Shown: piece after piece, positions 1,432 to 60,473 of the stretch
How positions within the stretch are numbered: position 1 is the first letter of the stretch
Layout of the letters: each line of letters starts with the position of its first letter
Assembly: GCA_963695435.1 (NCBI GenBank)
Contig: OY968788.1
Span: 134,330-198,329, forward strand
Source of the DNA: an uncultured bacterium
Lineage (GTDB): Bacteria; Patescibacteriota; Kazan-3B-28
Direction of reading: 5' to 3'
Length of the DNA stretch: 64,000 nt
The notes under the pieces: generated by a model
Databases searched by the model: none
The model's input: the letters and a program-made list of their open reading frames with translations, nothing else
What the model was told of the DNA's origin: nothing
Program-made: the position numbers and the translations under genes

Positions 1432-2622
1432 CTATGTCAGTTTTAGGAAATTCCGTTTGCCGACTTGGAGGACCAAGTCGGTTTTTGGTTTCACGACAAA
1501 GCCGATATCAGTAATGGTGATGTCGCCTAGTTTTACCCCGCCCTGATGAATCAGTCGGCGAGCTTCAGAATTGGAACCTGCCAGTTTGTTTTTGACCAGC
1601 AAGTCTAAAATCGACATTGGTTTGGCAAGTTTTATTGTTTTGATGTCGCTTGGTGCGGAGTGTTTCTGGAAGACGGAGACGAAATCATTTTGAGCTTTAT
1701 CAGCTTCTTTTTTGCCGTGATACATCGAAACAATGGTGTGAGCCAACCGCATTTTCAAATCACGAGGGTTATTCTTTTTGTTCGCCAGTTCCTTTTTGAT
1801 TTTGGCGAGTTCCGCCGTGCTGACATTGGTTGCCAAATCAAAGTAGGTGTAAATGATGCTATCTGGAATAGACATCACTTTTCCGTACTGGCTTTTGGCA
1901 TCTTCGGTAATGCCGATGTAGTTATTCAAAGACTGACTCATTTTTTGGACGCCGTCAGTACCGACAAGGAGCGGAACAGCGATGATAGCTTGCGGAATTT
2001 GTCCAAAATCTTTCTGCAAATCTCTTCCTCGCATTTCATTGAAAAGCTGGTCGGTGCCAATTACGGTGGCATCATCTTTCAACATCACCGAATCGTATCC
2101 TTGCAAGATAGGATAGACCAATTCGTGGAAGCCAATCTCTTCGCCTTTTTTGATTCTCTTTTGGAACATATCTCGTTCAATCATTTGGGAGTGGGTGAAG
2201 TGCGACATTATTTTCAGCAAATCTTCGGCGGACATTTTATCGTGCCATTCGCTGTTGTAACGGATTTCAGTCTTTTTCGGATTTAATATGACCATTACTT
2301 GTTTCAGGTAATTGTTCGCTGACTTCAGTACTTCTGCTTTGGTGCGGAGTTTGCGGGATTGGTCGCGGTCAGTTGGGTCGCCAAAACGGCCGGTGAATCC
2401 GCCGATTAAAAATTGAACAGTGTGGCCGAGGTCCTGAAACTCGCGGAGCTTGTGATAGACCACGCCGTAGCCGATATGCAAATCGGGAGTGGTTGGGTCC
2501 ACGCCGTGTTTGATTTTCAGTTTTTTACCTGAAAGAAGTTTTGCGCGAAGCTCTTTTTCGCCAATCATTTTTTCAACTCGGCGAGAGAGCAGGGAATCGA
2601 TTACTTTTTTGTCTATTGCCAT
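1432..2622 (-). CDS. tyrS: tyrosyl-tRNA synthetase
   Basis: GVDPTTPDLHIGYGV (HIGH-like), GGFTGRFGDPT, KMSQS (KMSKS-like), C-terminal S4-like domain. Confidence 0.9.
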   Translation of the reverse strand: MAIDKKVIDSLLSRRVEKMIGEKELRAKLLSGKKLKIKHGVDPTTPDLHIGYGVVYHKLREFQDLGHTVQFLIGGFTGRFGDPTDRDQSRKLRTKAEVLKSANNYLKQVMVILNPKKTEIRYNSEWHDKMSAEDLLKIMSHFTHSQMIERDMFQKRIKKGEEIGFHELVYPILQGYDSVMLKDDATVIGTDQLFNEMRGRDLQKDFGQIPQAIIAVPLLVGTDGVQKMSQSLNNYIGITEDAKSQYGKVMSIPDSIIYTYFDLATNVSTAELAKIKKELANKKNNPRDLKMRLAHTIVSMYHGKKEADKAQNDFVSVFQKHSAPSDIKTIKLAKPMSILDLLVKNKLAGSNSEARRLIHQGGVKLGDITITDIGFVVKPKTDLVLQVGKRNFLKLT

Positions 2623-2832: not shown

Positions 2833-5388
2833 ATGAGTGAACTCATGCCGTTTGGTCCCAGACACGAGATAGATAAGATTCGCCGTCAAATGAAGGCGCG
2901 GTCTTTGGGTAGAAAAGCAAAGAAGAGGGTTTTCACTTTTCTGTCTCGGTATGGCATCAATACTCCGCCAAAGTTGTTTTTGGCGGGGTTTATCGCCGTT
3001 CTTTTTGTATTCAGTTTCACGATGGCGGTGGTTTCAGTTGGACTTCCGAACCCTGCTAGATTGGTAATTTATGCGGCGACTGATTCGACTAAAGTATTCG
3101 ATCGTGACGGTGCCGTACTTTATGACATCTCAAACGGGAAAAACCGCACAACGATTCCTTTTGAGCAAATGCCTGAAGATTTGAAGAATGCAACTATCGC
3201 TATTGAGGATAAAGATTTTTATCATCACAACGGTTTTGATATCAAAGGATTTTTGCGCGGGACAATTTTGAAACCACTTGCGGGGCAAGGTTTTCAGGGT
3301 GGCTCAACAATTACCCAGCAGTTTGTGAAAAATGCGTTGTTAAGTTCGGAGAGAAGTGTCTTACGCAAAGCGCGAGAATTGATTTTGGCATTTGAGTTGG
3401 AAGCGGTTTATTCCAAAGATAAGATTTTGGAATTGTATTTGAATGAGATTCCATACGGCAGCGGGGCATACGGGGCGCAACAGGCGGCTAAAATGTATTT
3501 TGGGAAAGATGCCAAGGATATTAATTTAGCAGAAGCAGCGGTGTTGGCGGCGTTGCCGCAAGCACCGGGGAGATATTCCCCTTACGGACAAAATCCGGAT
3601 TTGCTGATGTTGCGTAAAGATTTGGTTTTGGCGCAGATGGAAAAGCAGGGCTACATCACCAAGGCGGAGGAGGTGGATGCCAAAAAGACGGAAATAAAGT
3701 TTCAACCTCGGAGGGATTCGATTCGCGCTCCTCATTTTGTAATGTATGTAAAAGAATTGTTGGCGGCGAAGTATGGCGAAAAGGTGTTGGAAGAGGGTGG
3801 ACTGCAAATCACCACTACATTAGATATTGATAAACAAAAGGCGGCGGAAGATACAATCGCTAATTTAGCGGAATCCAACAAAACGAAATACAACGCAGGC
3901 AACGCGGCGTTAGTTTCAATCGATCCAAATACGGGAGAGATTTTGGCGATGGTGGGGAGTAAAGATTATTTTGATATGGAGGCGGAAGGAAATGTAAATG
4001 TGGCAATTCGTGAACGGCAACCTGGTTCGTCTATCAAACCGCTTGTTTATGCCACTGCGTTCAAAAAAGATTATGCTCCTGCAACAATGCTGGTGGATGT
4101 GTCCACTGATTTTGGTCAGGGGTATCGGCCACGCAACTATGACGGAGGTTTTCGCGGACCGATTTCTGCTCGGGAGGCGTTGGGCAACTCTATCAACGTT
4201 CCTGCGGTAAAGACATTGGCGTATGCGGGGGTGCAGGACACGATTGATACTGCGCATGATATGGGAATCACTACGCTAAACGGCGGAGCAGACAGATACG
4301 GACTTTCGCTCACATTGGGAGGCGGAGAAGTTACTTTGTTTGATTTGACTCGCGCGTATGGTGTGTTTGCGACGGGCGGAAATCTGACACCGACAATGGC
4401 AGTTTTGAAAGTGACGGACAAATTTGGTCATGTGTTGGAAGAAAACGAACCTGAAAAATCTAAGCAAGTTTTGGATCCGCAGGTGGCGTATTTAATAAAT
4501 AGTATTTTGTCGGATGACAGTGCGCGCGCTCGAGTATTTGGAATGGGCGGGCTACTGACGTTGCCTGGCAGAACAGTTGCGGCGAAGACGGGTACAACAA
4601 ACGATTACAAAGATGGTTGGACAATAGGCTACACTCCTGATTTGGTGACAGGAGTTTGGGCGGGGAATAATCACAACGAAGAAATGACTGCCTCATCAGC
4701 AATGGTGGCGGCGCCAATGTGGAATAGATATATGAAGTTGGCACTGGCTGGTGTACCAAATAAATCTTTCAGCAGACCTGATGGAATTTCGGATGTGATG
4801 GTGGATGCCTTGTCGGGCAAGTTGCCGGTTGAAGGTGTGACGCCAACAACAAAGTCAGAAGTGTTTGCGAGCTGGAGCGTACCGAAAGAAATGGACAATG
4901 TGCATGTGGTGAAAAAAGTAATGAAGAGCGACACCAGCAAATTAGCACCAGCAAATGCACCTGCGGAATTAACTGAAGATAAAGTATTTACTGTAATTCA
5001 TTCGGAACGGCCGAGTAGTTCAAATTGGGAAGGTCCAGTTCTGGCATGGGCGGCGGCAAATGGATATAACAATGTCCCAACGGAAACTTATTCTGGTTCG
5101 ATGGATGGGAGTGCGACGGCGGAAATTACTTTGACGAATCCGATAGAGGGGGCAACGGTTACGGGAGATTTGTTAGTTTCAGCGAGTGTTAGAGCGGGGG
5201 TAGGTGTGAAGAGAGTTGAGTTTTATTATGATAATTCGCTGAAAGGACAGGTGACAGGAGCGCCGTATCAATTTACGATTAAAGCTCCCAAGCAAGACGG
5301 GAAGACACATACCGTTAGGGTTAGATTGCTCAAGGCTGATAATAGTACTGCAGAGGATAGTGTAAGTATTGTTGCTGGTGGAGGATAA
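2833..5388 (+). CDS. class A penicillin-binding protein (transglycosylase + transpeptidase) with a C-terminal Ig-like extension
   Basis: GT51 motifs EDKDFYHHNGFD and GGSTITQQFVKN; transpeptidase SSIKP (SxxK) and KTGTTND (KTG). Confidence 0.9.
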   Translation: MSELMPFGPRHEIDKIRRQMKARSLGRKAKKRVFTFLSRYGINTPPKLFLAGFIAVLFVFSFTMAVVSVGLPNPARLVIYAATDSTKVFDRDGAVLYDISNGKNRTTIPFEQMPEDLKNATIAIEDKDFYHHNGFDIKGFLRGTILKPLAGQGFQGGSTITQQFVKNALLSSERSVLRKARELILAFELEAVYSKDKILELYLNEIPYGSGAYGAQQAAKMYFGKDAKDINLAEAAVLAALPQAPGRYSPYGQNPDLLMLRKDLVLAQMEKQGYITKAEEVDAKKTEIKFQPRRDSIRAPHFVMYVKELLAAKYGEKVLEEGGLQITTTLDIDKQKAAEDTIANLAESNKTKYNAGNAALVSIDPNTGEILAMVGSKDYFDMEAEGNVNVAIRERQPGSSIKPLVYATAFKKDYAPATMLVDVSTDFGQGYRPRNYDGGFRGPISAREALGNSINVPAVKTLAYAGVQDTIDTAHDMGITTLNGGADRYGLSLTLGGGEVTLFDLTRAYGVFATGGNLTPTMAVLKVTDKFGHVLEENEPEKSKQVLDPQVAYLINSILSDDSARARVFGMGGLLTLPGRTVAAKTGTTNDYKDGWTIGYTPDLVTGVWAGNNHNEEMTASSAMVAAPMWNRYMKLALAGVPNKSFSRPDGISDVMVDALSGKLPVEGVTPTTKSEVFASWSVPKEMDNVHVVKKVMKSDTSKLAPANAPAELTEDKVFTVIHSERPSSSNWEGPVLAWAAANGYNNVPTETYSGSMDGSATAEITLTNPIEGATVTGDLLVSASVRAGVGVKRVEFYYDNSLKGQVTGAPYQFTIKAPKQDGKTHTVRVRLLKADNSTAEDSVSIVAGGG

Positions 5389-5419
5389 CGCCGTTTTTTG
5401 TTTTTTATTCTTTTTCTTT

Positions 5420-5535
5420 TTTGTCATTCCAGCGAAGGCTGGAATCTATTTTTATTTAATTGTTTTGAAGCGCCGAATCGCGCTTCAGCGATTGTTACTT
5501 TCCGCTTGAGGAAAGTAACCAAAGTCGCTCGCCAG
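5420..5535. repeat. composite dispersed repeat: family D hairpin followed by family A (two hairpins gaagcgccgaatcgcgcttc and gttactttccgcttgaggaaagtaac)
   Basis: A near-identical ~85-bp copy lies at 43975-44057. Partial copies at 6863-6900 and 36598-36625. Confidence 0.8.
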
Positions 5536-5712
5536 TCGCTTTCACTCTGAATCTCCCAAAATCCTCTCCATCTGCTTATCACCAAACTCGCTACGCTCAG
5601 ACATGGGCACGCTGATTGGAGGGATTTTGGGGATTCAGTACGCTCAAGCTCCAATGGCGGAAATAAAAGAGGATTGATACACTAATGGTGTAATAATTAT
5701 ATTATTGACAAT

Positions 5713-5731: not shown

Positions 5732-6034
5732 ATGAAAATAGAGCTGAAAGTTTTAGAATATGTTGCAGATTTTTTGGATGACTTACCAGTGGAGTTATAC
5801 GCTAGATGTGTAAAGAAGTTGAAGCTTTTTGAAGAATTTGGCTTTTTATTGTCAAAGACTGATCTAAAGAAGATCAATAAAAATATTTGGGAGTTGCGTC
5901 CGGGGGACATCAGAATTCTAATAGGTAAAGCGAAGGGCTGTATGTGGGCATTACACGCATTTCCCAAGACAAGTCAGAAAACGCCTATAAAAGAGATTAA
6001 GTTGGCAGACAAACGTTTAAGAGAATTAAGATGA
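5732..6034 (+). CDS. HigB/RelE-family (Gp49-like) type II toxin
   Basis: IWELRPGDIRILIG...HAFPKTSQKTP matches the Gp49/HigB pattern. Stop overlaps the next start (ATGA). Confidence 0.7.
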   Translation: MKIELKVLEYVADFLDDLPVELYARCVKKLKLFEEFGFLLSKTDLKKINKNIWELRPGDIRILIGKAKGCMWALHAFPKTSQKTPIKEIKLADKRLRELR

Positions 6035-6330
6035 GCAAGAAAAAATTCTACACAGTTAGTGAGATAGAAAAGAGAGCGATGAAGAGTCCGAGTTTTCGTC
6101 GGGCTTACGAAGCATTAGAGCCCGAGTATCAAATTGCTAGGGCGGTAATACAGGCGCGTCACAAAAAGGGGATGACGCAAGGAGAATTGGCTCGAAAGGC
6201 GGGAACTAAGCAACCTGTTATTGCGCGTTTGGAGAGCATGAAGAGCCCTGCTTCTTCCAAGAGTATGGGGCGAATTGCTCATGCACTTGATCTTCGCTGG
6301 GAACTAAAGTTAGTGCCGAAGACCAGATAA
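6031..6330 (+). CDS. HigA-like XRE-family HTH antitoxin
   Basis: GMTQGELARKAGTKQPVIARLE is a Cro/C1 HTH. 4-bp overlap with the upstream toxin gene. Confidence 0.7.
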   Translation: MSKKKFYTVSEIEKRAMKSPSFRRAYEALEPEYQIARAVIQARHKKGMTQGELARKAGTKQPVIARLESMKSPASSKSMGRIAHALDLRWELKLVPKTR

Positions 6331-6765: not shown

Positions 6766-6862
6766 TATAGATTTTTTTGTTTTCTTGTCCTCGGGCTTGA
6801 CCCGGGGATCCAAACATTTTTTTATTTAGTTTTTCAAGGGTCTGCGCGACCCTTGTACCGCG

Positions 6863-6900
6863 GTTACTTTCCGCTTGAGGAAAGTAACCAAAGTCGCTTG
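6863..6900. repeat. family A partial copy (gttactttccgcttgaggaaagtaaccaaagtcgct)
   Basis: Identical core hairpin to those at 5497-5535 and 44021-44057. Confidence 0.75.
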
Positions 6901-7098
6901 CCCACGTCGTCGGAACTATCAATTGGCAAAAATCATCTTTCCGCTAATGGTCGAAACTCGGTCGTAGCCACTCCCTCAAACATCTCCCCGCGGCGATGAT
7001 TTTACTCAATTGATTACATTCCTCCTCCTATGGCAGGGGAAGTTGACTGAGGGGAGGATTACTGATATAAGGGATATTATAGTAAACTGAATTAGGAC

Positions 7099-14882: not shown

Positions 14883-14936
14883 GGTAGAGGAGCAAGCAAA
14901 AAGGAACTTTTGTTTTTCTATTTGTTTTATCTTTGC

Positions 14937-14975
14937 ACAATTAGCTGAACGGCCGTTCAGCTAATTGTGAGGGTA
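14937..14975. repeat. 35-bp palindromic element caattagctgaacggccgttcagctaattgtg (copy 1)
   Basis: Perfect palindrome ttagctgaacggccgttcagctaa. A second copy lies at 15510-15545. Confidence 0.8.
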
Positions 14976-15045
14976 TTTTTTAAATATTTGTGTGTTTTTT
15001 GATATTTTTCAATATTTTTGAAGTAATTTGGGGGTATGATAAAAG

Positions 15046-15517
15046 GGTGAAGAACAGTCGGGGGGCGTACAGACTGATGAAAGCATTGTTCCGTTTGATG
15101 GACGGCAATGGTGTAGTCCGACTCAATAAACATTGGCAAGAAAAACTTCGCGACCCTCGCCAACATGGCGATGGTCGCTCGTTTAAATATTTGCGTGATG
15201 CGGAATATCTTATTGAGCTGGGGCCGGATAAATATGAAGTGACGGATTTGGCAAAAATTAACTTATTGAAAGAAATTGTTAAGACGCGTAAGAGGGACGG
15301 GAAGTTGAGGCTTGTGATTTTTGATATTCCTGAAAGATTGAAAGCGAATAGAAATTTTTTCCGTCGGCATTTGGTGGATATGGAATTTCAGATGAGACAG
15401 CAAAGTGTATGGGTATCGCCATATCCATGCGAGGACTTAGTTGCTTTGGCTGTGAAATATCACGGTTTGCAGAAATATGTCGAACTAATAGTCGGCAAAG
15501 TAGGCACAATTAGCTAA
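15046..15517 (+). CDS. winged-helix regulator with C-terminal Cas2-like (PaaX-like) domain
   Basis: C-terminal LRLVIFDIPERLKANRNFFRRHLVDMEFQMRQQSVWVS follows the Cas2/PaaX_C pattern (LVxYDI...R..FRR.L...GF...Q.SVW). Start is ambiguous (GTG at 15046 or ATG at 15077). Confidence 0.55.
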
Positions 15518-15545
15518 ACGGCCGTTCAGCTAATTGTGTAGGGGA
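15510..15545. repeat. 35-bp palindromic element copy 2 (overlaps stop codon of the preceding gene)
   Basis: caattagctaaacggccgttcagctaattgtg. Confidence 0.8.
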
Positions 15546-19638: not shown

Positions 19639-19800
19639 CGTCGAAATGGCTTCGCCCGACGCGCGAACAAGTAAAACTTGTTCGGCTATTGAGGCTCAGC
19701 ATTTCTCCTTTCAAAATCACAAACAGTCGTTTTACTCCTTGGTTTGCGATTTTGGCTTAGGGGAGGACATAGTTGACAGATAGGGCGACCTATTTCATAA
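19639..19800 (+). repeat. post-tRNA conserved element, family B copy 1 (ends in a ttgaca-17-cataat promoter)
   Basis: cgtcgaaatggcttc...cggctattgaggctcagcatttctcc...ccttggtttgcgattttggctt...ttgaca. The homologous copy lies at 54925-55100. Confidence 0.75.
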
Positions 19801-19802
19801 TG
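19773..19802 (+). promoter_or_regulatory. sigma70-like promoter (ttgaca-17 nt-cataat)
   Basis: Seen directly, upstream of rplK. Confidence 0.6.
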
Positions 19803-19814
19803 CCCCTTGTTATG

Positions 19815-19960
19815 CCCCGTAGAGAAATTTAGAACGCCCTTGGGCTAAAGCTATATTCTCTGCGGAAAAGCATGATTCTGATGAGTTATCGTTAGGGCAG
19901 GTTTATTAGGATAATGCCCAAGGCGAGGAGAGAATATAACTTCTAAATTCTTCTACGGGG
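19815..19960 (+). repeat. MITE-like structured element, family F copy 1, forming the 5-prime leader of rplK
   Basis: ccccgtagagaaatttagaa ... agagaatataacttctaaattcttctacgggg (terminal and internal inverted repeats). The second copy lies at 41303-41450. Confidence 0.75.
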
Positions 19961-19961
19961 T

Positions 19962-20384
19962 ATGGCAAAGAAAGTTAAATCAGTTGTGAAGATCCAGCTC
20001 GAGGCTGGTAAAGCAAATCCCGCCCCTCCGGTGGGTACGGCTTTGGGGCCCCATGGCATTGCGATCATGGATTTTTGCAATCAGTACAACGAAGCGACCA
20101 AGTCGATGATGGGGAATGTAATCCCTGCTGTCGTTACGATTTTTGAAGACCGGTCATTCAACTTTATTTTGAAGCAGCCGCCAGCGGCCGAGCTTATCAA
20201 AAAAGCGCTTGGCATTGAAAAGGGCGCTAAAGTTCCGAACAAAGAAAATGTCGGTACATTGACGAAAGCACAACTTAGAGAAATTGCCGAAAAGAAAATG
20301 CCTGACATGAATGCTAATGATATTGAAGCGGCGATGAAGATTATTGCGGGGACCGCCAAAAACATGGGAGTGAAGATAGAATAA
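19962..20384 (+). CDS. rplK: 50S ribosomal protein L11
   Basis: [20 protein letters not shown]. Confidence 0.95.
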
Positions 20385-20463: not shown

Positions 20464-21282
20464 ATGCTAGAGAAGAAAGTTGTCACTAAAAAAGTGACGA
20501 AGAAGGCGGTTAAGAAACCTAGTGCGGGAGATGAATCCTCCTACGCCAAGGCTACGAAGGACATCGGAGCTAAGAAAAAGATAGCTCCTCGTAAGTTTGG
20601 GCGAGGGAAGAAATATCTCGCTGTTTTGCCGAAGGTAGATAAGGAAAAGTTTTATCCGGCAGATGAGGCGATTAAGTTAGCGCAGGAAACTTCCCCGAGC
20701 AAATTTGATGCAACGATAGAGTTGCATGTTTGTATGGGGTTGGATCCAAAGAAGCCTGAGCAAAATATCCGCGGAACTGTTTCGATGCCAGCCGGAACGG
20801 GCAGAACTAAAAAGATCTTGGTTTTGGCGGAGGAAGCAGATGCAAAGAAAGCATTGAGCGCGGGAGCAGATTACGCTGGTCTTGAAGATATGATTAAGAA
20901 AATCCAAGAAGGTTGGATGGATTTTGATTTGGTAATTGCAACACCAACAGCAATGCCTCAAGTTGGAAAACTTGGGCAGACATTGGGGACCAAAGGTTTG
21001 ATGCCAAATCCAAAATCAGGAACTGTTGCGCCTGATGTCGCGAAGGCAGTTGAAGAATTCAAAAAAGGAAAAGTTGAATTTCGTTTAGACAAAGACGCGA
21101 TTATTCATTTGGGGTTTGGGAAAGTTTCATTTAAGACAGAAGATTTGATGACGAACTTCAAAACGATTGTGAGCGCTATTCAATCGGCGAAACCTGCGGC
21201 GTCTAAAGGGTCTTACATCAAACGGATGTCAGTGGCTTCGACGATGGGGCCGGGGATCAAAATCGATCTTCAATCAATCTAA
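20464..21282 (+). CDS. rplA: 50S ribosomal protein L1 with Lys-rich N-terminal extension
   Basis: ELHVCMGLDPKKPEQNIRGTVSMPAGTG. Confidence 0.92.
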   Translation: MLEKKVVTKKVTKKAVKKPSAGDESSYAKATKDIGAKKKIAPRKFGRGKKYLAVLPKVDKEKFYPADEAIKLAQETSPSKFDATIELHVCMGLDPKKPEQNIRGTVSMPAGTGRTKKILVLAEEADAKKALSAGADYAGLEDMIKKIQEGWMDFDLVIATPTAMPQVGKLGQTLGTKGLMPNPKSGTVAPDVAKAVEEFKKGKVEFRLDKDAIIHLGFGKVSFKTEDLMTNFKTIVSAIQSAKPAASKGSYIKRMSVASTMGPGIKIDLQSI

Positions 21283-21284
21283 AG

Positions 21285-21390
21285 CTCTCGAGAGAAGAAC
21301 GAAGGTATGTTCCTCTCTCGACGCTCGTGGGCAAAGCCCATTTCGACAAGTCGAAACAAGCTCACTGCTCTTACCTCCACCTAAAAGATA
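21285..21390 (+). repeat. ~105-bp structured repeat, family G copy 1 (directly after rplA stop)
   Basis: ctcgagagaagaacgaaggtatgttcctctctcgacgctcgtgggcaaagcccatttcgacaagtcgaaacaagctcactgctcttacctccacctaaaaga. Almost identical to 23564-23668. Confidence 0.85.
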
Positions 21391-21520
21391 GAAAAGGAGA
21401 CCGTCCTGCTGTACAGCGGGGCGGTTTTTGTTTGGTGTATAATTTGGGTAAGGAACGACCGACCGATTTTGTAGGGGGCGGGGTTTCGGTATTGTAACTT
21501 ACAAATGAGGAGGTGAGGGG

Positions 21521-23017: not shown

Positions 23018-23560
23018 ATGGAGAATATTATGGCAGATGAAAATACAATTCCAGAAGAGCAAGCTCCAGAAGCTTCCACCTCCGCTGAAGCTACGGTGGA
23101 CGTTCCGGTAGAAGCTCCAAAGGAAGATAAGAAAGTAGACAGTATGTCTACTGAAGCCTCGGCGAAGGTAGATGCAAGCAAGTTGTCAGGCAATGCCAAA
23201 AAAGTTTTGGACATGGTTAGTGAGATGACAGTGCTTGAGTTGGCTGAGCTCGTGAAAGTATTGGAAGACAAGTTCGGCGTGAGTGCCGCGCCTGTTGCCG
23301 TTGCCGCCGCTGGTGGTGCTGGTGCTGGAGCTGCAGCCGTCGAAGAGAAGAGCGAATACAACATTAACTTGGTTAATGCTGGTGCCAACAAAATCAACGT
23401 GATTAAGGCAGTTCGCGAAGTGACCGAGTTGGGCTTGAAAGAAGCCAAAGACTTAGTCGAAGGCGCACCAAAAATGGTGAAAGAAAATGTAAAGAAGGCG
23501 GACGCAGAAGAGATTAAGAAGAAATTAGAAGCCGCAGGTGCCAAAGTCGAGTTACAATAA
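23018..23560 (+). CDS. rplL: 50S ribosomal protein L7/L12 (with acidic N-terminal extension; true start may be internal)
   Basis: Ala/Gly-rich hinge and [28 protein letters not shown]. Confidence 0.9.
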
Positions 23561-23563
23561 AAT

Positions 23564-23668
23564 ATCTCGAGAGAAGAACGAAGGTATGTTCCTCTCTCGA
23601 CGCTCGTGGGCAAAGCCCATTTCGACAAGTCGAAACAAGCTCACTGCTCTTACCTCCACCTAAAAGAA
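23564..23668 (+). repeat. family G copy 2 (directly after rplL stop), followed by terminator at 23680-23710
   Basis: ~99% identical to 21285-21390. Terminator is gaagccccgccgaaaggcggggcttttt. Confidence 0.85.
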
Positions 23669-23817
23669 AGAATAAAGAAGCCCCGCCGAAAGGCGGGGCT
23701 TTTTGGTCTCTATTTGACCTTGGGGGCAGATGTGCTATCTTGCGGGTGGCGTGTTTTTGGCTCTAGAAGCCAAAAAGCGACTACTAGCTATTTGACATTT
23801 AGAAGGGGGTGATAACA

Positions 23818-27892: not shown

Positions 27893-27977
27893 GCTGGACG
27901 CTTGACTTTGGGGGGTTCTGTGGTATGATTTATCCGCTTCTAGAGCGGGTTTTTTATACCTAGTATAATCAGGTGTT

Positions 27978-30900
27978 ATGGGTAATGGAGGCAACAATAT
28001 GGAGAAGTTCGAAGTGCCGGATCAAATCTCGGCGGACTTGGTTACTCCAGAAGAGTCGGCTTTGGCTGAATTGATTGGTAAGGCTGAGCAGGCCGATAGA
28101 GAATCTTATGATGGAGCTTTTGTATCCTCTTCGGAGGTTCCTAAGCTGGCAGAAATATCGGATGAATGGGTGATGAGCGAAAGATGCCTTGAAGACCCCG
28201 AATATCTAAAATTTTTAAGTTCGCTAGAACAAGAATATATAGAACCTTCCCTAGAGAAAGGGCCGAAGCTGCTGAAGGATGTGGCTATTTTGTCGATCGA
28301 CTACGAAGGATTTACTCGTTTTGCTCGCCGTCTTACGGAAACAGTAGATTACTCCAAGTATGCCTCTCGCGAGATGGCTAAACACATGAGTTTGGGTTTG
28401 AACGAAGCCAGACGGCTTGTTGGGGCCTACGGGGGAATGATGGATGGTGTATTTGGTGATGGGACATCAGCTATTTTTTATGGCGATAAGGCGGTTGCCA
28501 AGGCAGTCTTGGCTGCTCAGGCGATAGAAGAAAAGATTAAAACATTGCAGGACATTAGTGTTCGTGGTGTTGAAGCTCCTTGGAAGGTACGATTTGGTAT
28601 CTCTTTTGGAGATGCAATGTTGGTTAGTTATGGTGACAACGAAAGAAGGGCAGACCTAACTGGTTCGGTTGTGGCGCAGGCCGAGGACTTGCAAAAAAAG
28701 GCTATCCCAGGCAAGTCCAGTATCGTGCTTTCAGAATCAGCCCAAGGGAAATTGAGCAGTGAGAGCGAGGTGTCATTTAGTGAAGATTTGAACGCCTATG
28801 CAGTGGGCAAGCTGGACAAGAAAGATAAAGAGATTGATCTCACGGAGGGAGGGATGCAGGCACCCCAAGAGCCTGAAGAGATACGCCGTTGGGCGGCTTT
28901 TCGCGAAAAACATTTTAGCCAGACTCGTCGCAAAGAAATAAGAAACCAATACTTCCGCGAACAAGAGCCAGATCCAGACATGCTGCCGATCAGCACTCTT
29001 TTTATACGCTTGAAGGGCTTGGATATGAGCGGAGAAAATTTTGAACAGACCAATTCCTACATGACATCTATTTTTGAAATTGCTAATAATTTTCGCGGTA
29101 AGGTTGATAAAGTACATCACGATTCAGTGATGATCAACTTTGTAGCTGGTGATCATGAGCTTAATAGCGCAATGGCAGCAGTACGAATTAGAGAAGAAAT
29201 AGAAACACTTAGGCAGCAGTTCGATGATTCGAAGCTTGATCCTAAAATGTCATGTACAAAAGGTGATGCCTTTTTGCTGGTCGTTGGCGGGAACAGAACT
29301 GTTTACGGAGAAAGTGTAAACCGAGCCTCACGCTTGCTGTATGCCAATAACCCAGGCGGTGGTTTGGTGGTAGATGAGTCAACCTTTTTGAAAATTAACC
29401 GAGCGCGGGTAGATGCAGAAGCGCTTAGACCGGTAGTGCTGAAAGACTATGAAGATAAACCGATCAACATCTATCTCATAAAGAACATTGAGCAAATAAC
29501 CTTCCGCCATGTTGATGTGGAGAAGGTGGTGGGCTTGGAACGAGAAACAAAATTATTGAATCAGTATTATGACGAGGCTAAGGCCGAAGGACGAGTGGTA
29601 GCGGTCAAAGGTCCTTCTGGTGCTGGTAAAACGCTGTTGGTGGCTCGCTTTATTCACGACAAAGAAGAAAAGGGCGTGAAGGTTATTGAGGGGCGTGCCG
29701 AAAGGTCACGCCAGAACATATCTTTTGCTGTTTGGAGAGATATTTTGGAAAGTGCCTTTGTTGTTCAGAATGTGGCCGACAAGGAAAGAAGGGGGGCAAT
29801 CGTTGAGGAGCATTTTAGGGTCAATGGACTAAGCGATGTCTATGGCGACAAGCTAGCATTGTTCAATGCTGTTTTGGATACAAAATTTAGTGAGACAGAC
29901 GCAACTCGATATCTTTCTACTGATGAGCGGGAAGAAAAAAGAGCCGAACTGATTGCTGAAACATTGAAGAGTTTTGCTAGCTTGAACCAGCCGGCGATTG
30001 TCTTTTTGGAAGATGTTCACTTTTTTGATAAAGACTCGGCTCAACTGGCCGCGAAGGTTATGCCAAAGCTTGAGCAGAATAGTTGTTTGGAAGTTCTGAC
30101 CACTTGGATTGAAGAAGAGGGCGATGAGCGGACAGAGCGATTAATGAACTTCCTAAAAAACCTTTCTCATTTTAGAGAAGTTCCAGTTGAATCTTTGCCG
30201 CTTTATAAAGAAAAGTATTACGATGATATTCCTGCGGCGCGAGAGTGGTGGCATCAAGCCAAAGAGAAATACCTCGCGTTGGCGAGCAATATCGGCATTG
30301 AATTCTTGCCCAGCGATCTTGATGAGAACGATAAAAACTATGAGAAAAAGGACAAGGCCTATGCGAGATTCTTTATTAATGTAGCTAGAACTTCTAAGGG
30401 GGTTCCGCGGCATGTGCTAGAGATATTGGAATATTTCACACTTTACAAGGGACGCGGCAAGGACTATTTCCGAGAGAAAGAACTTTCAGTTGACGGAGAA
30501 TCAAAGGTTTTTTATGCCCTGGGAGAAACTCGTATCGGCGACGAAGACTTGTTTGGCGAAGAGGAAATTAGTGATATTTATAAAATTGAACAACAAAAAC
30601 TGGAGAATCTCGGAGGAGACTCCAAGGCTATCTTGAGGGACGCTTCGGTAGTAGGTATGGTTTTTGACGAGAAGGTCTTGCAACACATATCGGGGTTAAG
30701 CGGAGAGAGAATTCAAAGAGCATTGCGTAACGCAAAAGTGGCTCGCATGGTTCGCTCTTTGGGTGAGGGTGAATGGGAGTTTATCCATGGTGTTACCCAA
30801 CATGCCATCTATGAAAGTATCGGTAAGATTCGTGAACGCCAAGCGAATCACCGGCTGATTGCTGAATATTTAGTAGAGTCCACGCCCGACAGCTTGAGAA

Positions 30901-37909: not shown

Positions 37910-37980
37910 GATGACTCCTTAAAATTTACGCTTTCATATCATATCACACCCCTTGAGGCGGTATGATAATATAACAAGGT

Positions 37981-39255
37981 ATGGGAAGGAGTTTTCAAAA
38001 GCCGAGGGGGACACAAGATATTCTGCCGAGCGAGCAGAAGTATTGGATGTTTGTGGAAGATACTTTTCGGGAGATGATGCTCGCGGCGGGTTTTGGGAAA
38101 ATTGCTACTCCAACATTTGAAGATACGGATTTGTTTACTCGCGGTGTTGGTGAAGTGACTGACATTGTGAGCAAAGAAATGTATACCTTTAAGGACAGAG
38201 GCGGTAATTCAGTTACTTTGCGTCCTGAAGGAACAGCGGGTGTGGCGCGGGCGTACATTGAGCACGGTATGCATAAAGAACCGCAGCCAGTGAAATTATT
38301 TTATTTTGGACAGATGTTTCGTTATGATCGCCCGCAGGCGGGAAGATTCAGAGAGTTCTATCAAGCGGGTGCGGAACTATTCGGCGAATTGGACCCAACA
38401 ACCGACGCGCAGATGATTGCGGTGATGATGAAGTTTTATGAAAAGTTGGGACTAAAAGATTTGAAAGTGCGGGTGAACAGTATTGGGGACACGCGAAGTC
38501 GGACAAAAATAAATAAAGCATTGATTGATTTTTTGTCCGCACACAGACGCAGGCTTTGTAATGACTGCAAAATCAGACTCTCGAAAAATCCGCTTCGGGT
38601 GCTGGATTGTAAGGAAAAGGGGTGTCAGGCAATTTTGGATGAGGCGGGGAGTGTCTTGTTGGATAGTCTAACGCCGGATTCGCGTAATTTCTTTACGAAA
38701 GTTTTAGAATATTTGGACGACATGGGTGTGAATTATGAATTGACTCCGCGACTTGTTAGGGGATTGGATTATTACACACACACAGTTTTTGAAGTTATAA
38801 GTAAGGATGACAATAATGCGTTGGGTGGCGGCGGACGGTATGACGGATTATTGAAAATGCTGGGCGGCCCGGATATTCCCGCGGTGGGATTTGCGGTGGG
38901 GATTGAACGCACAATTGAACTACTCAAAAAACAAGCGGTCAAAGTTCCTGAACCTGCAATGAGTGATATTTTTGTGGCACAGCTTGGTGATGAAGCAAAG
39001 AAGAAAGCGATAAAAGTAATTACGCAAGTGCAGGATGCGGGATTCCGAGTAGCGCACGCGTTGGGCAGAGAAAGCATCAAAGGACAATTGCGGGTGGCGG
39101 ACAGACTGGGAACCAAAATTGCTATTATTATTGGGGAGAGAGAAGTCCACGATGGGAGCGTAATAATTAGAGATTTGAAGGATGGGACACAAGAGTCGGT
39201 GCTAGACAGAAATCTGGTGAAAGCCATCCAGCGTAAGTTGAAGGAGAAAAAATGA
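37981..39255 (+). CDS. hisS: histidyl-tRNA synthetase
   Basis: Class II motifs: TLRPEGTAG, FRYDRPQAGRFREFYQ, GGGRYD. Confidence 0.92.
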   Translation: MGRSFQKPRGTQDILPSEQKYWMFVEDTFREMMLAAGFGKIATPTFEDTDLFTRGVGEVTDIVSKEMYTFKDRGGNSVTLRPEGTAGVARAYIEHGMHKEPQPVKLFYFGQMFRYDRPQAGRFREFYQAGAELFGELDPTTDAQMIAVMMKFYEKLGLKDLKVRVNSIGDTRSRTKINKALIDFLSAHRRRLCNDCKIRLSKNPLRVLDCKEKGCQAILDEAGSVLLDSLTPDSRNFFTKVLEYLDDMGVNYELTPRLVRGLDYYTHTVFEVISKDDNNALGGGGRYDGLLKMLGGPDIPAVGFAVGIERTIELLKKQAVKVPEPAMSDIFVAQLGDEAKKKAIKVITQVQDAGFRVAHALGRESIKGQLRVADRLGTKIAIIIGEREVHDGSVIIRDLKDGTQESVLDRNLVKAIQRKLKEKK

Positions 39256-41251: not shown

Positions 41252-41302
41252 ACCGTTGCCAAGCCCGTTCCATAGGATAGAATAGGGACAGGTTTCAGCA
41301 TG

Positions 41303-41450
41303 CCCCGTAGAGAAATTTAGAACGTCTTGGGCGTAGATTATATTCTCTGATGGGGAAATACAACCACAACTGGTTTGTAATGCTATAGTTGAAGGTTCAT
41401 ACATGTCCAAGCCGAGTGAGAGAATATAATTTCTAAATTCTTCTACGGGG
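41303..41450 (+). repeat. family F copy 2, forming the leader of ftsA
   Basis: ccccgtagagaaatttagaacgtcttgggcgtagattatattctct...gagagaatataatttctaaattcttctacgggg. The last g is the first base of the GTG start at 41450. Confidence 0.75.
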
Positions 41451-42670
41451 TGAAAGAGAAAATTGCTGTTGGTATAGACATCGGCGATTCTAAAGTGGTG
41501 ACAGTAATTGGTCACCGTGCCGAAGGTGAAATACACCCCAGTGTTGTGGGAGTGAGTATTCATGAAGGTTCAGGAATGCGGCGTGGTGTGGTGACGGACG
41601 TAGAAGAAGCAGTATCAGCAATTGCAAGTTCGATTGAAGAAGCGGAACGAATGGCGGGATTGCCTGCAGAAGCGGTTTACATCTCACTTGTGGGTGACCA
41701 CATCAATGCAACTAATAATAAAGGATTGGTGACGATTGCGCGGGGTAGAGAAGAAATTACTTACGAAGATGTTGTGCGGGTAAGAGAAGTGGCGCAGTCA
41801 GTGCCAATGTCGGTCAATCGGGAAATTTTGCATGTTATTTCCAAAACCTACACGGTGGACGGGCAGGACGGTATCAAGGACCCGGTGGGGATGTCGGGGG
41901 TGAGGTTGGAGGTGGATGCTCATGTGATTACTGGTTCAACTCCTTTTATCAAGAATATTAGGAAGACGGCAGAGCAGGCGGGGGTGGCAGTTGCTGGTTT
42001 TGTTTTAGGTCCATTGGCCGCCGCTAAGGCGGTACTTTCAAAAAAGCAGAAAGAACTGGGAGTGGCGCTGATCGATATTGGCGCAAGTACAACCGGGATG
42101 GTGGTTTTTGAAGAGGGTGGGATTTATCATTCGGCAGTGCTTCCCATTGGTTCCGATCATTTGACTCATGATATTGCGATTGGTTTGAGAGTTTCGTTAG
42201 ACACGGCGGAGAAAATAAAATTGGAATACGGTGTGGCTAGCCCGGTTATGTTATCGGACAAAGACACAATTGATTTATCTAAAATTGATAAAGATGAAGA
42301 ACAGATAATTTCGCGCAGATATGTTGCCGATATTATTGAAGCAAGATTGGCGGAATTATTTTTGATGATAAAGTCGGAGTTACGGAAAGTCGGTCGCGAC
42401 GGCGTATTACCAGCCGGAGCGGTGTTGGTGGGCGGAGGAGCGAAGTTGGCCGGGATTGTTGAATCAGCCAAAAGTCACCTCGGTCTTCCCACACAACTGG
42501 GTTTTCCAGTCGAATTGAAGGGGATGGTTGACAAACTAGATGACCCCCGGTTCGCGACCGCCATCGGATGCATGCTGTGGGGTATGGATGAGGACAGTAG
42601 CCAGAGCAATTTCCCAACTTTGGATTTTGCGGCGATCGTCTCTCGGATAAAAAACATCTTCACCAAATAA
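41450..42670 (+). CDS. ftsA: cell division protein FtsA
   Basis: Actin-like fold motifs VGIDIGDSKV, LIDIGASTTGMVVFE. Confidence 0.88.
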   Translation: MKEKIAVGIDIGDSKVVTVIGHRAEGEIHPSVVGVSIHEGSGMRRGVVTDVEEAVSAIASSIEEAERMAGLPAEAVYISLVGDHINATNNKGLVTIARGREEITYEDVVRVREVAQSVPMSVNREILHVISKTYTVDGQDGIKDPVGMSGVRLEVDAHVITGSTPFIKNIRKTAEQAGVAVAGFVLGPLAAAKAVLSKKQKELGVALIDIGASTTGMVVFEEGGIYHSAVLPIGSDHLTHDIAIGLRVSLDTAEKIKLEYGVASPVMLSDKDTIDLSKIDKDEEQIISRRYVADIIEARLAELFLMIKSELRKVGRDGVLPAGAVLVGGGAKLAGIVESAKSHLGLPTQLGFPVELKGMVDKLDDPRFATAIGCMLWGMDEDSSQSNFPTLDFAAIVSRIKNIFTK

Positions 42671-43940: not shown

Positions 43941-43975
43941 GCGAGAGACGACCGCTAATTGGCGGTCGTTTTCTT
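43941..43975 (+). terminator. rho-independent terminator
   Basis: gagacgaccgctaattggcggtcgttttcttttt. Confidence 0.7.
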
Positions 43976-44057
43976 TTTATTTAATTGTTTTGAAGCGCCG
44001 AATCGCGCTTCAGCGATTGTTACTTTCCGCTTGAGGAAAGTAACCAAAGTCGCTCCC
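43975..44057. repeat. family A copy 2 (two-hairpin element)
   Basis: tttatttaattgttttgaagcgccgaatcgcgcttcagcgattgttactttccgcttgaggaaagtaaccaaagtcgct is near-identical to 5452-5535. Confidence 0.85.
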
Positions 44058-44250
44058 CACTCACAAATTGCTATCCAAAATAGAAAATCAGACCTTTCTG
44101 GACTATACGCTATACTCGCTACGCTCAAACAACGCTATCCATACCGGCTGATTTTCTAATTGGATAACGCAATTTGCTCGATGGGGTTGGGACAAAGGAG
44201 AAAGCCCGGCGCGGAGACGCAGGGCTTTGAGGAATGCAGGTTTGGGCATG

Positions 44251-44448: not shown

Positions 44449-44687
44449 GATTGACTCCGATGGTACAAATTCATCAGCAGTGTAAGGGAGGGTGGGGATA
44501 AAAGCAAGGGATAGGTGGTGTGAGAGCTGATTTAGGGTAGTACAAGATATAGGGGTATTATTAGTCTTACATACACAACATACGGTAGAGAGTAGAGTTT
44601 AGAGAGTAGAGTCTGGCTGGTAACTCTTGGAACTTGTTTGTAAATTTTTCTCTATTCTCTCGTCTCTGTTCTCTAATCTCTAATTTT

Positions 44688-54924: not shown

Positions 54925-55100
54925 CGTCGTCGAAATGGCTTCACGCTACGCACGAGCTCGACAAGTTTGCTCGGCTATTGGCGTTCAGCATTTCTCCTCT
55001 CCCCAAAATGTTCGCTACGCTGGAACATTTCGGGGACCCCATTTTAGGGCTCCTTGGTTTGCGATTTTGGCTTTGGGACTGGGGAAGGTTGACTTATGGG
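54925..55100 (+). repeat. post-tRNA conserved element, family B copy 2 (ends in ttgact-17-taagat promoter-like region)
   Basis: cgtcgaaatggcttc...cggctattggcgttcagcatttctcct...ccttggtttgcgattttggctt...gttgac parallels 19639-19800. Confidence 0.75.
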
Positions 55101-57887: not shown

Positions 57888-57934
57888 AGAATAGAGAATA
57901 GAGAATAGAGAATAGAGAATAGAGAATAGAGAAT
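57883..57934. repeat. tandem heptamer (agagaat) x7 filling the uppS-rseP gap
   Basis: atagagaatagagaatagagaatagagaatagagaatagagaatg runs from the uppS stop to the rseP ATG. Confidence 0.9.
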
Positions 57935-59015
57935 GACTTTTGTTACAGTAATAGTTTTCATTTTGATTTTCAGCCTGCTGGTGCTGGTGCACGAGGCGGG
58001 TCATTTTATGGCCGCCAAAAGAGCGGGAGTGAAGGTGGAAGAATTCGGGCTTGGATTGCCACCGCGAATTTGGGGCAAAAGAAAACACGGGACAATTTGG
58101 TCATTCAACTGGATTCCATTTGGCGGGTTTGTTCGGCTGAAGGGCGAGGATGGTGAACACGCGCACGATAAAGATTCGATGGCGCACAAAAAAGCCGGTC
58201 CAAGACTTTGGATCATTGTCGCGGGAGTGTTGATGAACTTTTTATTGGCGTATGTTTTGTTGATGCTTGGTTTTTGGTTTGGGATGGCGCCACTGGCACT
58301 TGATTTAAAAGCATTGGGCGAAGGAGAATATCAATCAAAGGTGATAGTGCTGGATGTGGTAAAGGGTTCCCCGGCAGAAACTGCTGGTATCAAGTCGGGA
58401 GATACAATTGTTTCTGTAGGGGGAACACAGATTACTTTAGTTAGCCAGTTACAGAGTATTTTGGCCGCAAAGACTAGTGCCAAAATAATCGTGGAACGGG
58501 ACGAGAAACCTGTGGCGCTGACAGTCGCAACTAAGGCGGAAGATGGAAAACGAATTATTGGGGTGTTGATAGATGAGGTGGTGGCATCGGTGAAATACAC
58601 TTGGTGGAAGGTGCCGTATTACGCGCTGTTAGATTTTATTTTGTTAGTGAAGCAAATTGCTGCCGCGTTGGTAGCGTTTGTGGTGCATTTATTTACAACT
58701 GCTTCAATTCAGGAATCAGTATCGGGGCCGGTGGGGATTGCTAAAGTTACTAGTGAGGCGGTGAAACTGGGATGGCTCTATACATTACAGTTGGTGGCAT
58801 TTTTGAGCGTGAACTTGGGGTTGATCAATATTGTTCCGTTCCCGGCACTGGATGGCGGGAGGTTGATATTTATTCTGCTTGAAATGGGAAGGGGCGGGAA
58901 GAAGGTCAGCAAAAAAGTTGAGAATGCGATTCACAGTCTCGGATTTATTTTATTGTTAGCACTAATTTTTGCAGTTACTTACCGAGACATCATTCATCTA
59001 TTCAATCCGGCCTAA
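57933..59015 (+). CDS. rseP: RIP zinc metalloprotease RseP (M50, with PDZ)
   Basis: LVHEAGHFMAAK (HExxH), PDZ segment, NIVPFPALDGG. Confidence 0.88.
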   Translation: MTFVTVIVFILIFSLLVLVHEAGHFMAAKRAGVKVEEFGLGLPPRIWGKRKHGTIWSFNWIPFGGFVRLKGEDGEHAHDKDSMAHKKAGPRLWIIVAGVLMNFLLAYVLLMLGFWFGMAPLALDLKALGEGEYQSKVIVLDVVKGSPAETAGIKSGDTIVSVGGTQITLVSQLQSILAAKTSAKIIVERDEKPVALTVATKAEDGKRIIGVLIDEVVASVKYTWWKVPYYALLDFILLVKQIAAALVAFVVHLFTTASIQESVSGPVGIAKVTSEAVKLGWLYTLQLVAFLSVNLGLINIVPFPALDGGRLIFILLEMGRGGKKVSKKVENAIHSLGFILLLALIFAVTYRDIIHLFNPA

Positions 59016-60393: not shown

Positions 60394-60473
60394 ATTGGGT
60401 TGTTTGCGGAGAGGCGGTTCTGCCGTTCGGCAGAGCTGTTTTTGTGTATCCGACCTGATATAATAGTCAGGTT

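Follow-up and report, generated by a model that had tools for sequence, protein, structure and literature searches.

Family F, a mobile hairpin-forming element of Kazan-group Patescibacteria found at the start codons of rplK and ftsA

The window analysed here is a stretch of 64,000 nucleotides from contig OY968788.1 of an uncultured Kazan-3B-28 patescibacterium and contains two copies of a short repeat, termed family F, immediately in front of rplK and ftsA. Family F is a mobile element and not a fixed regulatory leader, and very probably the two window copies represent insertions of a sequence resembling a MITE (miniature transposable element with inverted repeats) at the start codons of these genes. 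The best composite explanation, to which we give somewhat better than even chances, is a start-codon-inserting hairpin element of Kazan-group Patescibacteria which is the miniature of a GIY-YIG-bearing form and whose 3′ arm has become fixed as a leader.

Both copies lie where the initial annotation had placed them, at positions 19815–19960 and 41303–41450 of the forward strand, and the terminal and inner inverted repeats described there are confirmed. Each copy starts with CCCCGTAGAGAAATTTAGAA (arm A) and finishes with TTCTAAATTCTTCTACGGGG (arm A′). These arms are 20-nt imperfect terminal inverted repeats, complementary at 18 of 20 positions and conserved in 34 aligned copies; the arm sequence occurs four times in the window, twice per copy, and not once in 100 dinucleotide-preserving shuffles. 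In addition to the inner repeats already noticed (boxes C and C′), a third pair of boxes is present, in copy 1 as B (CGCCCTTGGGC, 19835–19845) and B′ (GCCCAAGGCG, 19916–19925). Copy 1 thus consists of arm A (19815–19834), box B, a short spacer and box C (19835–19861, with C, TATATTCTCT, at 19852–19861), a variable centre (19862–19915), boxes B′ and C′ (19916–19938, with C′, AGAGAATATA, at 19929–19938) and arm A′ (19941–19960). The corresponding parts of copy 2 are arm A at 41303–41322, boxes B (41323–41333) and C (41339–41348) within 41323–41348, boxes B′ (41405–41414) and C′ (41419–41428) within 41405–41428, and arm A′ at 41431–41450. As a result of the box order A-B-C...B′-C′-A′ the pairings B:B′ and C:C′ cross. 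Identity between the copies is complete for some 47 nt from the 5′ end and for some 45 nt up to the 3′ end, with unrelated sequence in the 50 nt or so of the centre. Neither copy harbors an open reading frame (ORF), hence no GIY-YIG domain is encoded in them.

The host genes were identified by their Pfam domains (Ribosomal_L11 and FtsA/SHS2_FTSA), with L1 and FtsZ encoded downstream. Copy 1 ends one T ahead of the ATG at 19962, with which the 140-aa L11 begins. In copy 2 the last G (41450), as had been remarked from the sequence, closes the arm and at the same time opens the GTG (41450–41452) of the 406-aa FtsA. A further ATG lies directly 5′ of arm A in both copies (19812–19814 and 41300–41302), and comparison with orthologous empty sites identifies it as the original start codon, denoted relic start in the following. 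The empty rplK sites of L064, L065, L067 and L068 read TTGAC-N17-TAATAAT...T ATG GCA AAG and contain a single TATG, whereas ...T ATG(element)T ATG GCA AAG is found at the filled sites of L043, L066 and the window. The window accordingly has one TATG at 19811–19814, including the relic ATG, and a second one at 19961–19964, including the functional ATG (19962–19964). Similarly, ftsA is empty in L060, L062 and L063 (TAGAAT...ATG AAA GAA AAA) and filled in the window (TAGAAT...ATG(element)TG AAA GAG AAA), and at hisS and rpsU the element is found in L060 only. Flanking direct repeats that include the start codon are nearly universal (TATG/TATG, (A)TGGA/(G)TGGA, (A)TGAA/(G)TGAA, TTGA/TTGA and TGGG/TGGG). 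Tandem dimers with the junction GGGG-TATG-CCCC occur in L056 and L044, and the interiors of copies at different loci are 81–97% identical. The inserted MITE, which the initial annotation had offered as one of its alternatives, is supported by empty sites in orthologues, by duplicated flanks, by copies in tandem and by paralogous copies that are nearly identical.

Further copies were collected with one degenerate pattern matching both arms, which was scanned against one genome per species and the JGI metagenomes, and via protein homologues of FtsA, L11 and the GIY-YIG proteins described below. Matches were obtained in metagenome-assembled genomes of the Kazan group and other Patescibacteria (METB01, METE01, CAYGIK01, JBAZNQ01 and several groundwater or sediment contigs). 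Pattern matches in Aequorivita and Clostridia (L002–L005, L019, L039, L046) are single arms in unrelated sequence and were excluded; a phage origin found no support, with neither 50,697 phage records nor IMG/VR yielding a match. The collection comprises 41 distinct full elements (105–152 nt, plus three versions of 310 nt) and four independent 3′-only remnants. Copy number is uneven, from about one per 15–20 kb in some contigs to three matches in a METB01 contig of 700 kb.

Of the 41 distinct copies, 35 have their 3′ arm directly against the start codon of a protein-coding gene, without exception in one orientation, so that relatives do not show the random intergenic positions which had been named as the mark of a pure MITE. 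The junction takes two forms, ...CTACGGGG-T-ATG (17 copies, 15 of them abutting genes) and ...CTACGGG-GTG or -ATG, in which the arm's terminal base also opens the codon (22 copies, 20 abutting genes). Among the hosts are rplK, ftsA, lepA, gyrA, lysS, valS, hisS, rpsU, secY, infA, rpmJ, mnmA, recO, glmM, dus and hsp20. The target sites TATG, TGGA and TGAA are found in the window 196 times in fully intergenic positions (both strands) and 30 times at start codons; compared with the roughly 13% expected from a uniform choice of tolerated sites, an estimate based on crude gene calls, the observed 85% corresponds to p ~4e-25 for copies that are not all independent. Placement at start codons is in all likelihood more than chance plus exclusion from coding sequence. 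All but one of the 41 copies have a relic start codon 0–2 nt 5′ of arm A, and in 34 cases this is ATG, in keeping with the 89% ATG among 137 control genes. Among rebuilt starts GTG accounts for 20 of 39, as against nine of the same 137 genes (6.6%; Fisher p = 2e-9). Relic ATG and excess of GTG together indicate that the new GTG is composed of the terminal G of the element and the TG of the gene. As a separate observation, in L048 and L018, where about 35 nt separate the element from tRNA-fMet, the junction GTG opens a conserved frame of eight codons (VDRRPTDC* and VDRKCSDC*, respectively) that overlaps a TGCTAACAT -10-like box.

A shared start codon does not imply descent from one insertion. 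At rplK (window versus L066), lepA, mnmA and hsp20 the interiors are no more alike than background, which amounts to 0.51 ± 0.07 with the same aligner. The ftsA site of L058 (9727–10000), a relative with 85% identity, carries a different composite element of about 300 nt with the ends CCCCGTTA...TAACGGGG, i.e. CCCCGTTACAA.../...TTGTAACGGGG, flanked by the same TGAA duplication. Unrelated interiors at one start codon and the presence of another family at this ftsA site point to recurrent independent insertion at the same nucleotide position. Three states are seen at lysS, namely an ORF-bearing copy (METE01), a 142-nt miniature (L047) and 5′-truncated remnants (METB01, JBAZNQ01).

The three 310-nt versions harbor an ORF between family F arms and are located at valS (L049 and L006) and at lysS (L069–L072, METE01). 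The ORF begins 5 nt past arm A, its stop codon falls on the first bases of A′, and in the lysS copy the arms show a compensatory A19G/T2C change. The encoded proteins of 87–90 aa belong to the GIY-YIG family (PF01541, E = 1e-16), with 67% identity between the valS and lysS versions; their closest relatives of solved structure are the UPF0213 proteins 1ywl and 1zg2, and NCBIfam has no name for them. A homologue of 67% identity, P0246, is putatively encoded on the same contig as the window FtsA and has the N-terminus MIMFY, like the L049 copy, whose first ATG lies within arm A. Two more inverted-repeat families with CCCGT...ACGGG termini enclose GIY-YIG genes (L012, before tsaD, and L056). The L012 cassette, CCCGTTAGAGAC...GTCTCTAACGGG, spans 277 nt (4404–4680), and in L014 a 77-nt element of another arm family, CCCGTTAGAAATC...GATTTCTAACGGG (2421–2497, minus strand), abuts an ATG. 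As to the element at the ftsA start of L058, its ends and position suggest a superfamily to which CCCCGT/ACGGGG termini and start codons as target appear to be common. That the GIY-YIG-bearing form is the autonomous partner of the miniatures is a serious candidate explanation, at slightly less than even odds. A window repeat, GTCATTCC(C/A)GCGAAGGC(G/T)GGAATC, at 904–945 and 5412–5453 has its like in inverted repeats (GTCATCCCGAG...CTCGGGATGAC) on both sides of a stand-alone GIY-YIG gene at about 4900–5250 of L021 (METB01). Small GIY-YIG genes in these genomes thus seem to be bounded by several kinds of inverted repeats.

Consensus-like promoters 7–13 nt upstream of each copy bear out the description of the elements as immediate 5′ leaders, and both elements would consequently lie in 5′ untranslated regions (UTRs), with arm A′ of copy 1 as the last 20 nt of that of rplK. 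Upstream of copy 1 this is a promoter-like TTGACA-17-CATAAT (19773–19801; 11 of 12 consensus matches) with a predicted transcription start at about 19808, 7 nt ahead of the element; a box TTGAC-N17-[CT]AATAAT or CATAAT precedes rplK in relatives both with and without the element. Upstream of copy 2 a TTGCCA-16-TAGAAT is found (41256–41283), of which TAGAAT is kept in relatives lacking the element.

The large stem-loop postulated in the initial annotation is reproduced by RNA folding: both copies give long hairpins with minimum free energies of -59.4 and -54.0 kcal/mol (z = -5.8 and -6.6), and none of 200 shuffles folds as well. Pair counts were taken from a plain MAFFT alignment and compared with the structure slid by 1–3 columns. 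Helix A:A′ is paired in 93.7% of the cells with double changes at 2 of 20 pairs, helix C:C′ in 82.9% with double changes at 9 of 12 pairs and helix B:B′ in 78.5% with double changes at 6 of 7 pairs, all far above the slid versions. Within A:A′ one G.U pair and one A.C mismatch are invariant. On this comparative basis the three pairings may matter to the RNA, to DNA in single-stranded form or to proteins that bind the paired sites. Folding energies of sense versus antisense strand are uninformative as a test for the RNA level, as the elements favour sense by 3.2 kcal/mol and random windows of the G-rich strand by 8.6 kcal/mol. With Rfam 15 nothing in the whole window reaches a gathering score, and at E ≤ 10 both copies match only chance-level miRNA or snoRNA models. 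A hammerhead-like CUGAUGA in copy 1 was dismissed since it is absent from copy 2 and matches no ribozyme model.

The arms are far more constant than the remainder of the element. Between probable orthologues 40 of 40 (window copy 1 and L043) or 39 of 40 arm positions (window copy 2 and L025) are identical, at 63–67% identity of the interiors, 49% of third codon positions and about 57% of the 5′ flank. Solo exact arms comprise four independent A′, each abutting a GTG start, and no A, even though the search pattern detects both. This bias, suggestive at most, fits an A′ that has turned indispensable by contributing to the start codon and by forming the final 20 nt of the leader. Whether A′ is kept by host-level selection as a leader we rate as evenly balanced.

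Alternatively, family F might be a purely selfish MITE without any role for the host, its arms being conserved merely as the copies are young or homogenised by gene conversion or re-insertion; the deletion bias of a streamlined genome would then spare only those insertions that have made themselves indispensable by supplying a start codon. Such an element would be expected to behave much as observed in that unrelated subfamilies repeatedly replace one another at the same site, paralogous copies are 81–97% identical and copy number varies strongly between genomes, and the retrieval was biased to intact arms, which do vary in loci retrieved by protein. However, orthologous copies with diverged interiors retain 39–40 of 40 arm positions, and the single orientation together with the excess at start codons is hard to obtain from random insertion and a selection filter alone. 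Moreover, insertions in essential and highly expressed genes (rplK, infA, rpmJ, secY, gyrA, aminoacyl-tRNA synthetase genes) must be compatible with expression. We regard a purely selfish family F as unlikely, although it is the strongest of the rival explanations.

For a host gene, the predicted consequence of an insertion is a stem that buries positions -15 to -1 and, in copy 1, also the AUG itself. The predicted mean unpaired probability of positions -15 to +12 is 0.26–0.29 with arm A and 0.43–0.51 without it. Such burial may serve translational control, as the initial annotation proposed, or may be no more than tolerated by the host. The ACGGGG of the 3′ arm had been taken to provide a Shine-Dalgarno-like sequence. 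GGGGUAU does pair with the AUACCUC of the 16S tail of a related genome (L053; -9.1 kcal/mol, equalled by 18 of 500 shuffles), but this pairing runs into the start codon at a spacing of 0–1 nt, whereas Shine-Dalgarno sequences in the window are situated 5–9 nt upstream (5–7 nt for rplA and similar genes). By reason of this spacing the 3′ arm is unlikely to act as a Shine-Dalgarno sequence. Nor does A′ qualify as a -10 box or leaderless promoter, there being no TAnnnT at a suitable distance.

A -10-like box is found 3–13 nt before the relic start of 26 of 41 target genes as compared with 41 of 137 controls (p = 2e-4), and in a dozen targets it ends exactly 6 nt ahead of the relic start. This enrichment implies that many hosts were formerly leaderless or nearly so, in which case the relic AUG would lie at the very 5′ end of the new transcript or close to it. 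In the window, many genes (e.g. at 27957–27980, 60453–60476 and 37960–37983) have a TATAAT-type -10 box 6–11 nt before the ATG and no Shine-Dalgarno sequence, while rplA, ftsZ, 21521 and 37909- have classical GGAGG sites; as far as sequence can tell, this suggests that leaderless or very short-leadered mRNAs are frequent there. The reading frames that open at relic starts comprise 3–39 codons (MPRREI*, MAP*, or 12–39 codons) and run through arm A. Most end in or just after arm A and none near the host start. Truncated copies before lysS and valS, which lack arm A and the relic, indicate that A′ plus GTG suffices as a leader. Translation begun at the relic start codon would unwind the stem, and we favour this route to a free start over an RNase cut at the stem base or an internal promoter, although we consider it rather unlikely in itself.

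A second alternative, which we consider improbable, is processing at the RNA level, whereby the hairpin is cut near its 3′ base (by RNase III, an RNase Z-like or another nuclease) or excised, so that a near-leaderless mRNA is regenerated and the arms serve as signals. It would agree with the many hosts of leaderless or short-leadered type, as judged from the -10-like boxes just mentioned, with the element ending 0–1 nt from the start codon, with the arms forming a 20-bp helix with a conserved A.C mismatch and with the flanking duplication, by virtue of which exact removal would restore the original ORF. On the other hand, no ribozyme or known processing motif is recognised by Rfam at E ≤ 10, copies within operons (secY, infA, rpmJ) are not at transcript 5′ ends, and the truncated copies without arm A and relic in front of the essential lysS and valS imply that an unprocessed A′-GTG leader suffices.

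Still less probable is a portable inward promoter of the sigma-70 type, to which arm A would contribute the -35 box (TTTAGA), box C the -10 box (TATAwT) and box B the spacer of 17–18 nt; its transcripts would start internally, lack arm A and hence have a free A′ leader. Each window copy does contain TTTAGA-17/18-TATATT, the TATAAT is perfect in several copies, and the asymmetric order A-B-C...B′-C′-A′ spaces the boxes correctly in the forward orientation only. Yet the motif occurs in only 13 of 34 elements and is absent from the second subfamily, for which reason an internal promoter was dismissed as a family-wide feature; furthermore, only 4 of 6 positions agree in the weak -35 box, host promoters are located directly upstream anyway and a consensus match is no evidence for function. 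Finally, a non-mobile cis-regulatory leader RNA of a growth-gene regulon, the arms of which bind a common protein or RNA factor, would suit the hosts (mostly translation, replication or division genes), the conservation of the arms beyond the needs of pairing and the strong fold, but is very improbable and largely refuted by the empty/filled comparisons, since close relatives have clean empty sites and duplications at the same genes, different genes carry the element in different genomes, copies form tandem dimers or lie upstream of tRNA or in promoter boxes, and no Rfam family matches.

The preferred explanation, i.e. the start-codon-inserting miniature of a GIY-YIG form with A′ fixed as leader, treats family F as a non-autonomous, hairpin-forming MITE-like element of 105–152 bp in Kazan-group Patescibacteria and can be broken down into four steps. 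The first, for which the filled and empty sites speak directly, is integration in one orientation at start codons with flanking duplication of TATG or TG(G/A)A, by which the relic start is left 5′ of arm A and a start is recreated at the 3′ edge, either as the duplicated ATG (rplK type) or as GTG from the last G plus TG (ftsA type). Secondly, versions with the same arms enclose a GIY-YIG nuclease gene at valS and lysS, from which the miniatures most likely arose by deletion, to be moved in trans by that nuclease; strand transfer or repair may employ host functions and microhomology at the start codon. Thirdly, having become the last 20 nt of the host 5′ UTR and part of the start codon, A′ would no longer be losable, which would explain near-invariant arms next to a drifting interior and the retention of C′ and A′ in all 5′-truncated copies. 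In the fourth and weakest step, A would pair with A′ in the mRNA and occlude the initiation region, so that expression needs opening of the stem, preferably by ribosomes that read from the 5′-proximal relic start through arm A, or else by an RNase cut; this dependence could render the element a translational brake or switch.

One may go further and regard family F as part of an undescribed class of mobile elements, consisting of a minimal GIY-YIG cassette within 20-nt inverted repeats and its ORF-less miniatures, which home to start codons; this we put forward only tentatively, as rather less likely than not to hold. Ectopic spread would then rely, perhaps, on copying during repair, for which the universal ATG along with the opening bases of codon two provides the microhomology, the host promoter would be captured for the element's own expression, and the host start codon would be rebuilt at the edge of the element. 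Translation of essential genes would depend on opening of the hairpin, e.g. by ribosomes at the relic, formerly leaderless, start.

Several observations weigh against the preferred explanation. Six of the 41 copies are situated away from protein starts: two about 33 nt upstream of tRNA-fMet, two as upstream members of tandem dimers, one inside the TTGA of a TTGACA -35 box and one just before a TGGCATAAT -10 box. The detectable duplication ranges from 2 to 4 nt, a variability not usual where a transposase is at work. A transposase was not found, nor did any DDE, HUH or serine enzyme accompany these arms; for HUH genes this covers the called genes of the fetched loci and not whole genomes. To our knowledge, an 87-aa GIY-YIG domain does not catalyse transposition, and GIY-YIG genes in these genomes also occur without such arms, beside tRNA genes, so that the connection of the nuclease with family F, though strong, falls short of proof. 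As loci were fetched by exact match to one arm, the conservation of the arms and the perfect A′ of the "half" elements are partly built in; four elements found by protein homology (two in L060, and those in L066 and L058) have 2–3 substitutions per arm or belong to another family, some of these changes being compensatory (AATTTT/AAAATC). The 4:0 asymmetry of solo arms is not significant by itself (p ~0.06–0.12). Translational coupling of the relic-start frames to the host gene was discarded because these frames end 29–301 nt upstream of the host start. Lastly, transcription, RNA folding in vivo and any effect on translation are matters of prediction here.

Other repeats and modules of the window were recorded alongside. 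Directly 3′ of tRNA genes a repeat of about 125–150 nt occurs, in the window at 19639–19762 and 54928–55077 (tRNA-Thr and tRNA-Val), as well as in L018 (tRNA-fMet) and L067 (a tRNA upstream of rplK). It contains the conserved blocks CGTCGAAATGGCTTC...CAGCATTTCTCC...GGTTTGCGATTTTGG and has a strong predicted fold and no Rfam match; family F copy 1 lies just downstream of one of these repeats. Another family (5449–5537, 6818–6906 and 43974–44062) is composed of two stem-loops after a T-rich run, with 98% identity of the first and third copies; the copy at 43974–44062 is found just past the ftsZ stop codon and the family may be of terminator type. A 113-nt repeat with three hairpins (21281–21393 and 23560–23672, 97% identical) begins at the stop codons of rplA and of ORF 23018–23560, and a 34-nt perfect or near-perfect palindrome, CACAATTAGCTGAACGG/CCGTTCAGCTAATTGTG (14936–14969 and 15505–15538), flanks ORF 14990–15517. 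Tandem runs of the heptamers AGAGAAT/AGAGTAG are located directly upstream of ORFs at 57888–57935, where the run ends at the ATG of ORF 57933, and also at 2643–2669 and 44589–44615. Between two copies of D1/D14 repeats, a pair of Gp49-like (PF05973) and HTH_3 genes (5732–6330) has the look of a toxin-antitoxin module.

We found no description in bacteria of mobile elements that recognise a functional landmark, the start codon, instead of an extended DNA sequence, and full-text searching of the literature, the coverage of which does not extend to all journals, brought up nothing comparable to family F. In rplK, ftsA, lepA, mnmA and hsp20 one and the same nucleotide position has been struck independently in different lineages. 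By these insertions starts of core genes were changed from ATG to GTG and leaders were replaced, which bears on gene calling in the Candidate Phyla Radiation. Some gene callers lengthen or displace the genes concerned, as in the "L11" entries of 198 and 189 aa. Several database entries for "L11" exceed the norm of about 141 aa (P0121 with 144, P0128 with 198 and P0183 with 189 aa); the called gene of P0128 (L065, 2471–3067) starts 171 nt upstream of the true ATG at about 2642, at an empty rplK site, and runs through tRNA genes. Public start-site annotation around these loci is unreliable. Should UPF0213-type GIY-YIG proteins indeed mobilise elements, a very abundant protein family of unknown function would gain a role. 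The arms moreover lend themselves, as a compact and testable system, to asking how translation proceeds from a start codon at the foot of a 20-bp helix in organisms rich in leaderless genes.

In order to place family F among known repeats, it was compared with several established systems; it fails defining features of Correia elements, mycobacterial interspersed repetitive units (MIRUs), GIY-YIG homing genes and attC sites. The attC sites of integrons are likewise imperfect palindromes (57–141 bp), in which ends as well as unpaired bases are conserved and the centre varies, and they immediately precede the next gene. However, neither window copy contains RYYYAAC or GTTRRRY cores, the ends being CCCCGTAG... 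and ...CTACGGGG, and the flanks of family F are core housekeeping genes instead of cassettes, with no integrase context seen. Free-standing GIY-YIG homing genes such as seg and mob of phage T4 are small and selfish, reside between host genes, use host promoters and have RNA hairpins around ribosome-binding sites. In contrast to family F they possess neither terminal inverted repeats nor ORF-less derivatives nor a flanking duplication, and spread allelically by homology; their enzymes carry DNA-binding domains, which the 87–90 aa proteins do not. IS200/IS605-derived palindromes and REP/RAYT resemble family F as short hairpin repeats of strict orientation with a short target beside one end, and a one-end target in conjunction with a strong gene-strand bias would produce a single orientation. 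They differ by subterminal hairpins, the absence of a duplication and a Y1 (HUH) transposase, whereas family F has terminal repeats and duplications.

MIRUs are intergenic repeats in register with the flanking stop and start codons that preserve downstream expression, and family F shares with them the fixed register with start codons. They are, however, direct tandem repeats within operons, are not palindromic and have no terminal inverted repeats, flanking duplications or nuclease gene. The palindromic elements of Rickettsia (RPEs) are palindromic mobile repeats of a reduced genome as well, which persist at essential genes in a manner compatible with expression; contrary to family F, which stays outside the ORF and replaces the leader, they insert in frame into coding sequence and are translated. 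Correia elements (NEMIS) of Neisseria are MITEs of 100–155 bp with long terminal inverted repeats, many of them adjacent to genes, and their co-transcribed hairpin can alter mRNA processing and expression; they can carry promoter-like boxes, duplicate TA, insert in both orientations and at variable distance from genes and do not rebuild start codons. We know of no GIY-YIG partner of these elements. Size, terminal inverted repeats and the 5′ UTR hairpin of family F are Correia-like, while its arm sequence is unrelated, its duplications are TATG or TGRA and its orientation is single. Altogether, family F resembles bacterial MITEs in being non-coding, 105–152 bp in length (below a limit of about 300–500 bp), bounded by terminal inverted repeats, flanked by duplications and dispersed in copies of MITE-like number with presence/absence polymorphism, and is set apart from those known by insertion at start codons in a single orientation, rebuilding of the start codon, a duplication of variable length and a GIY-YIG gene in place of a transposase.

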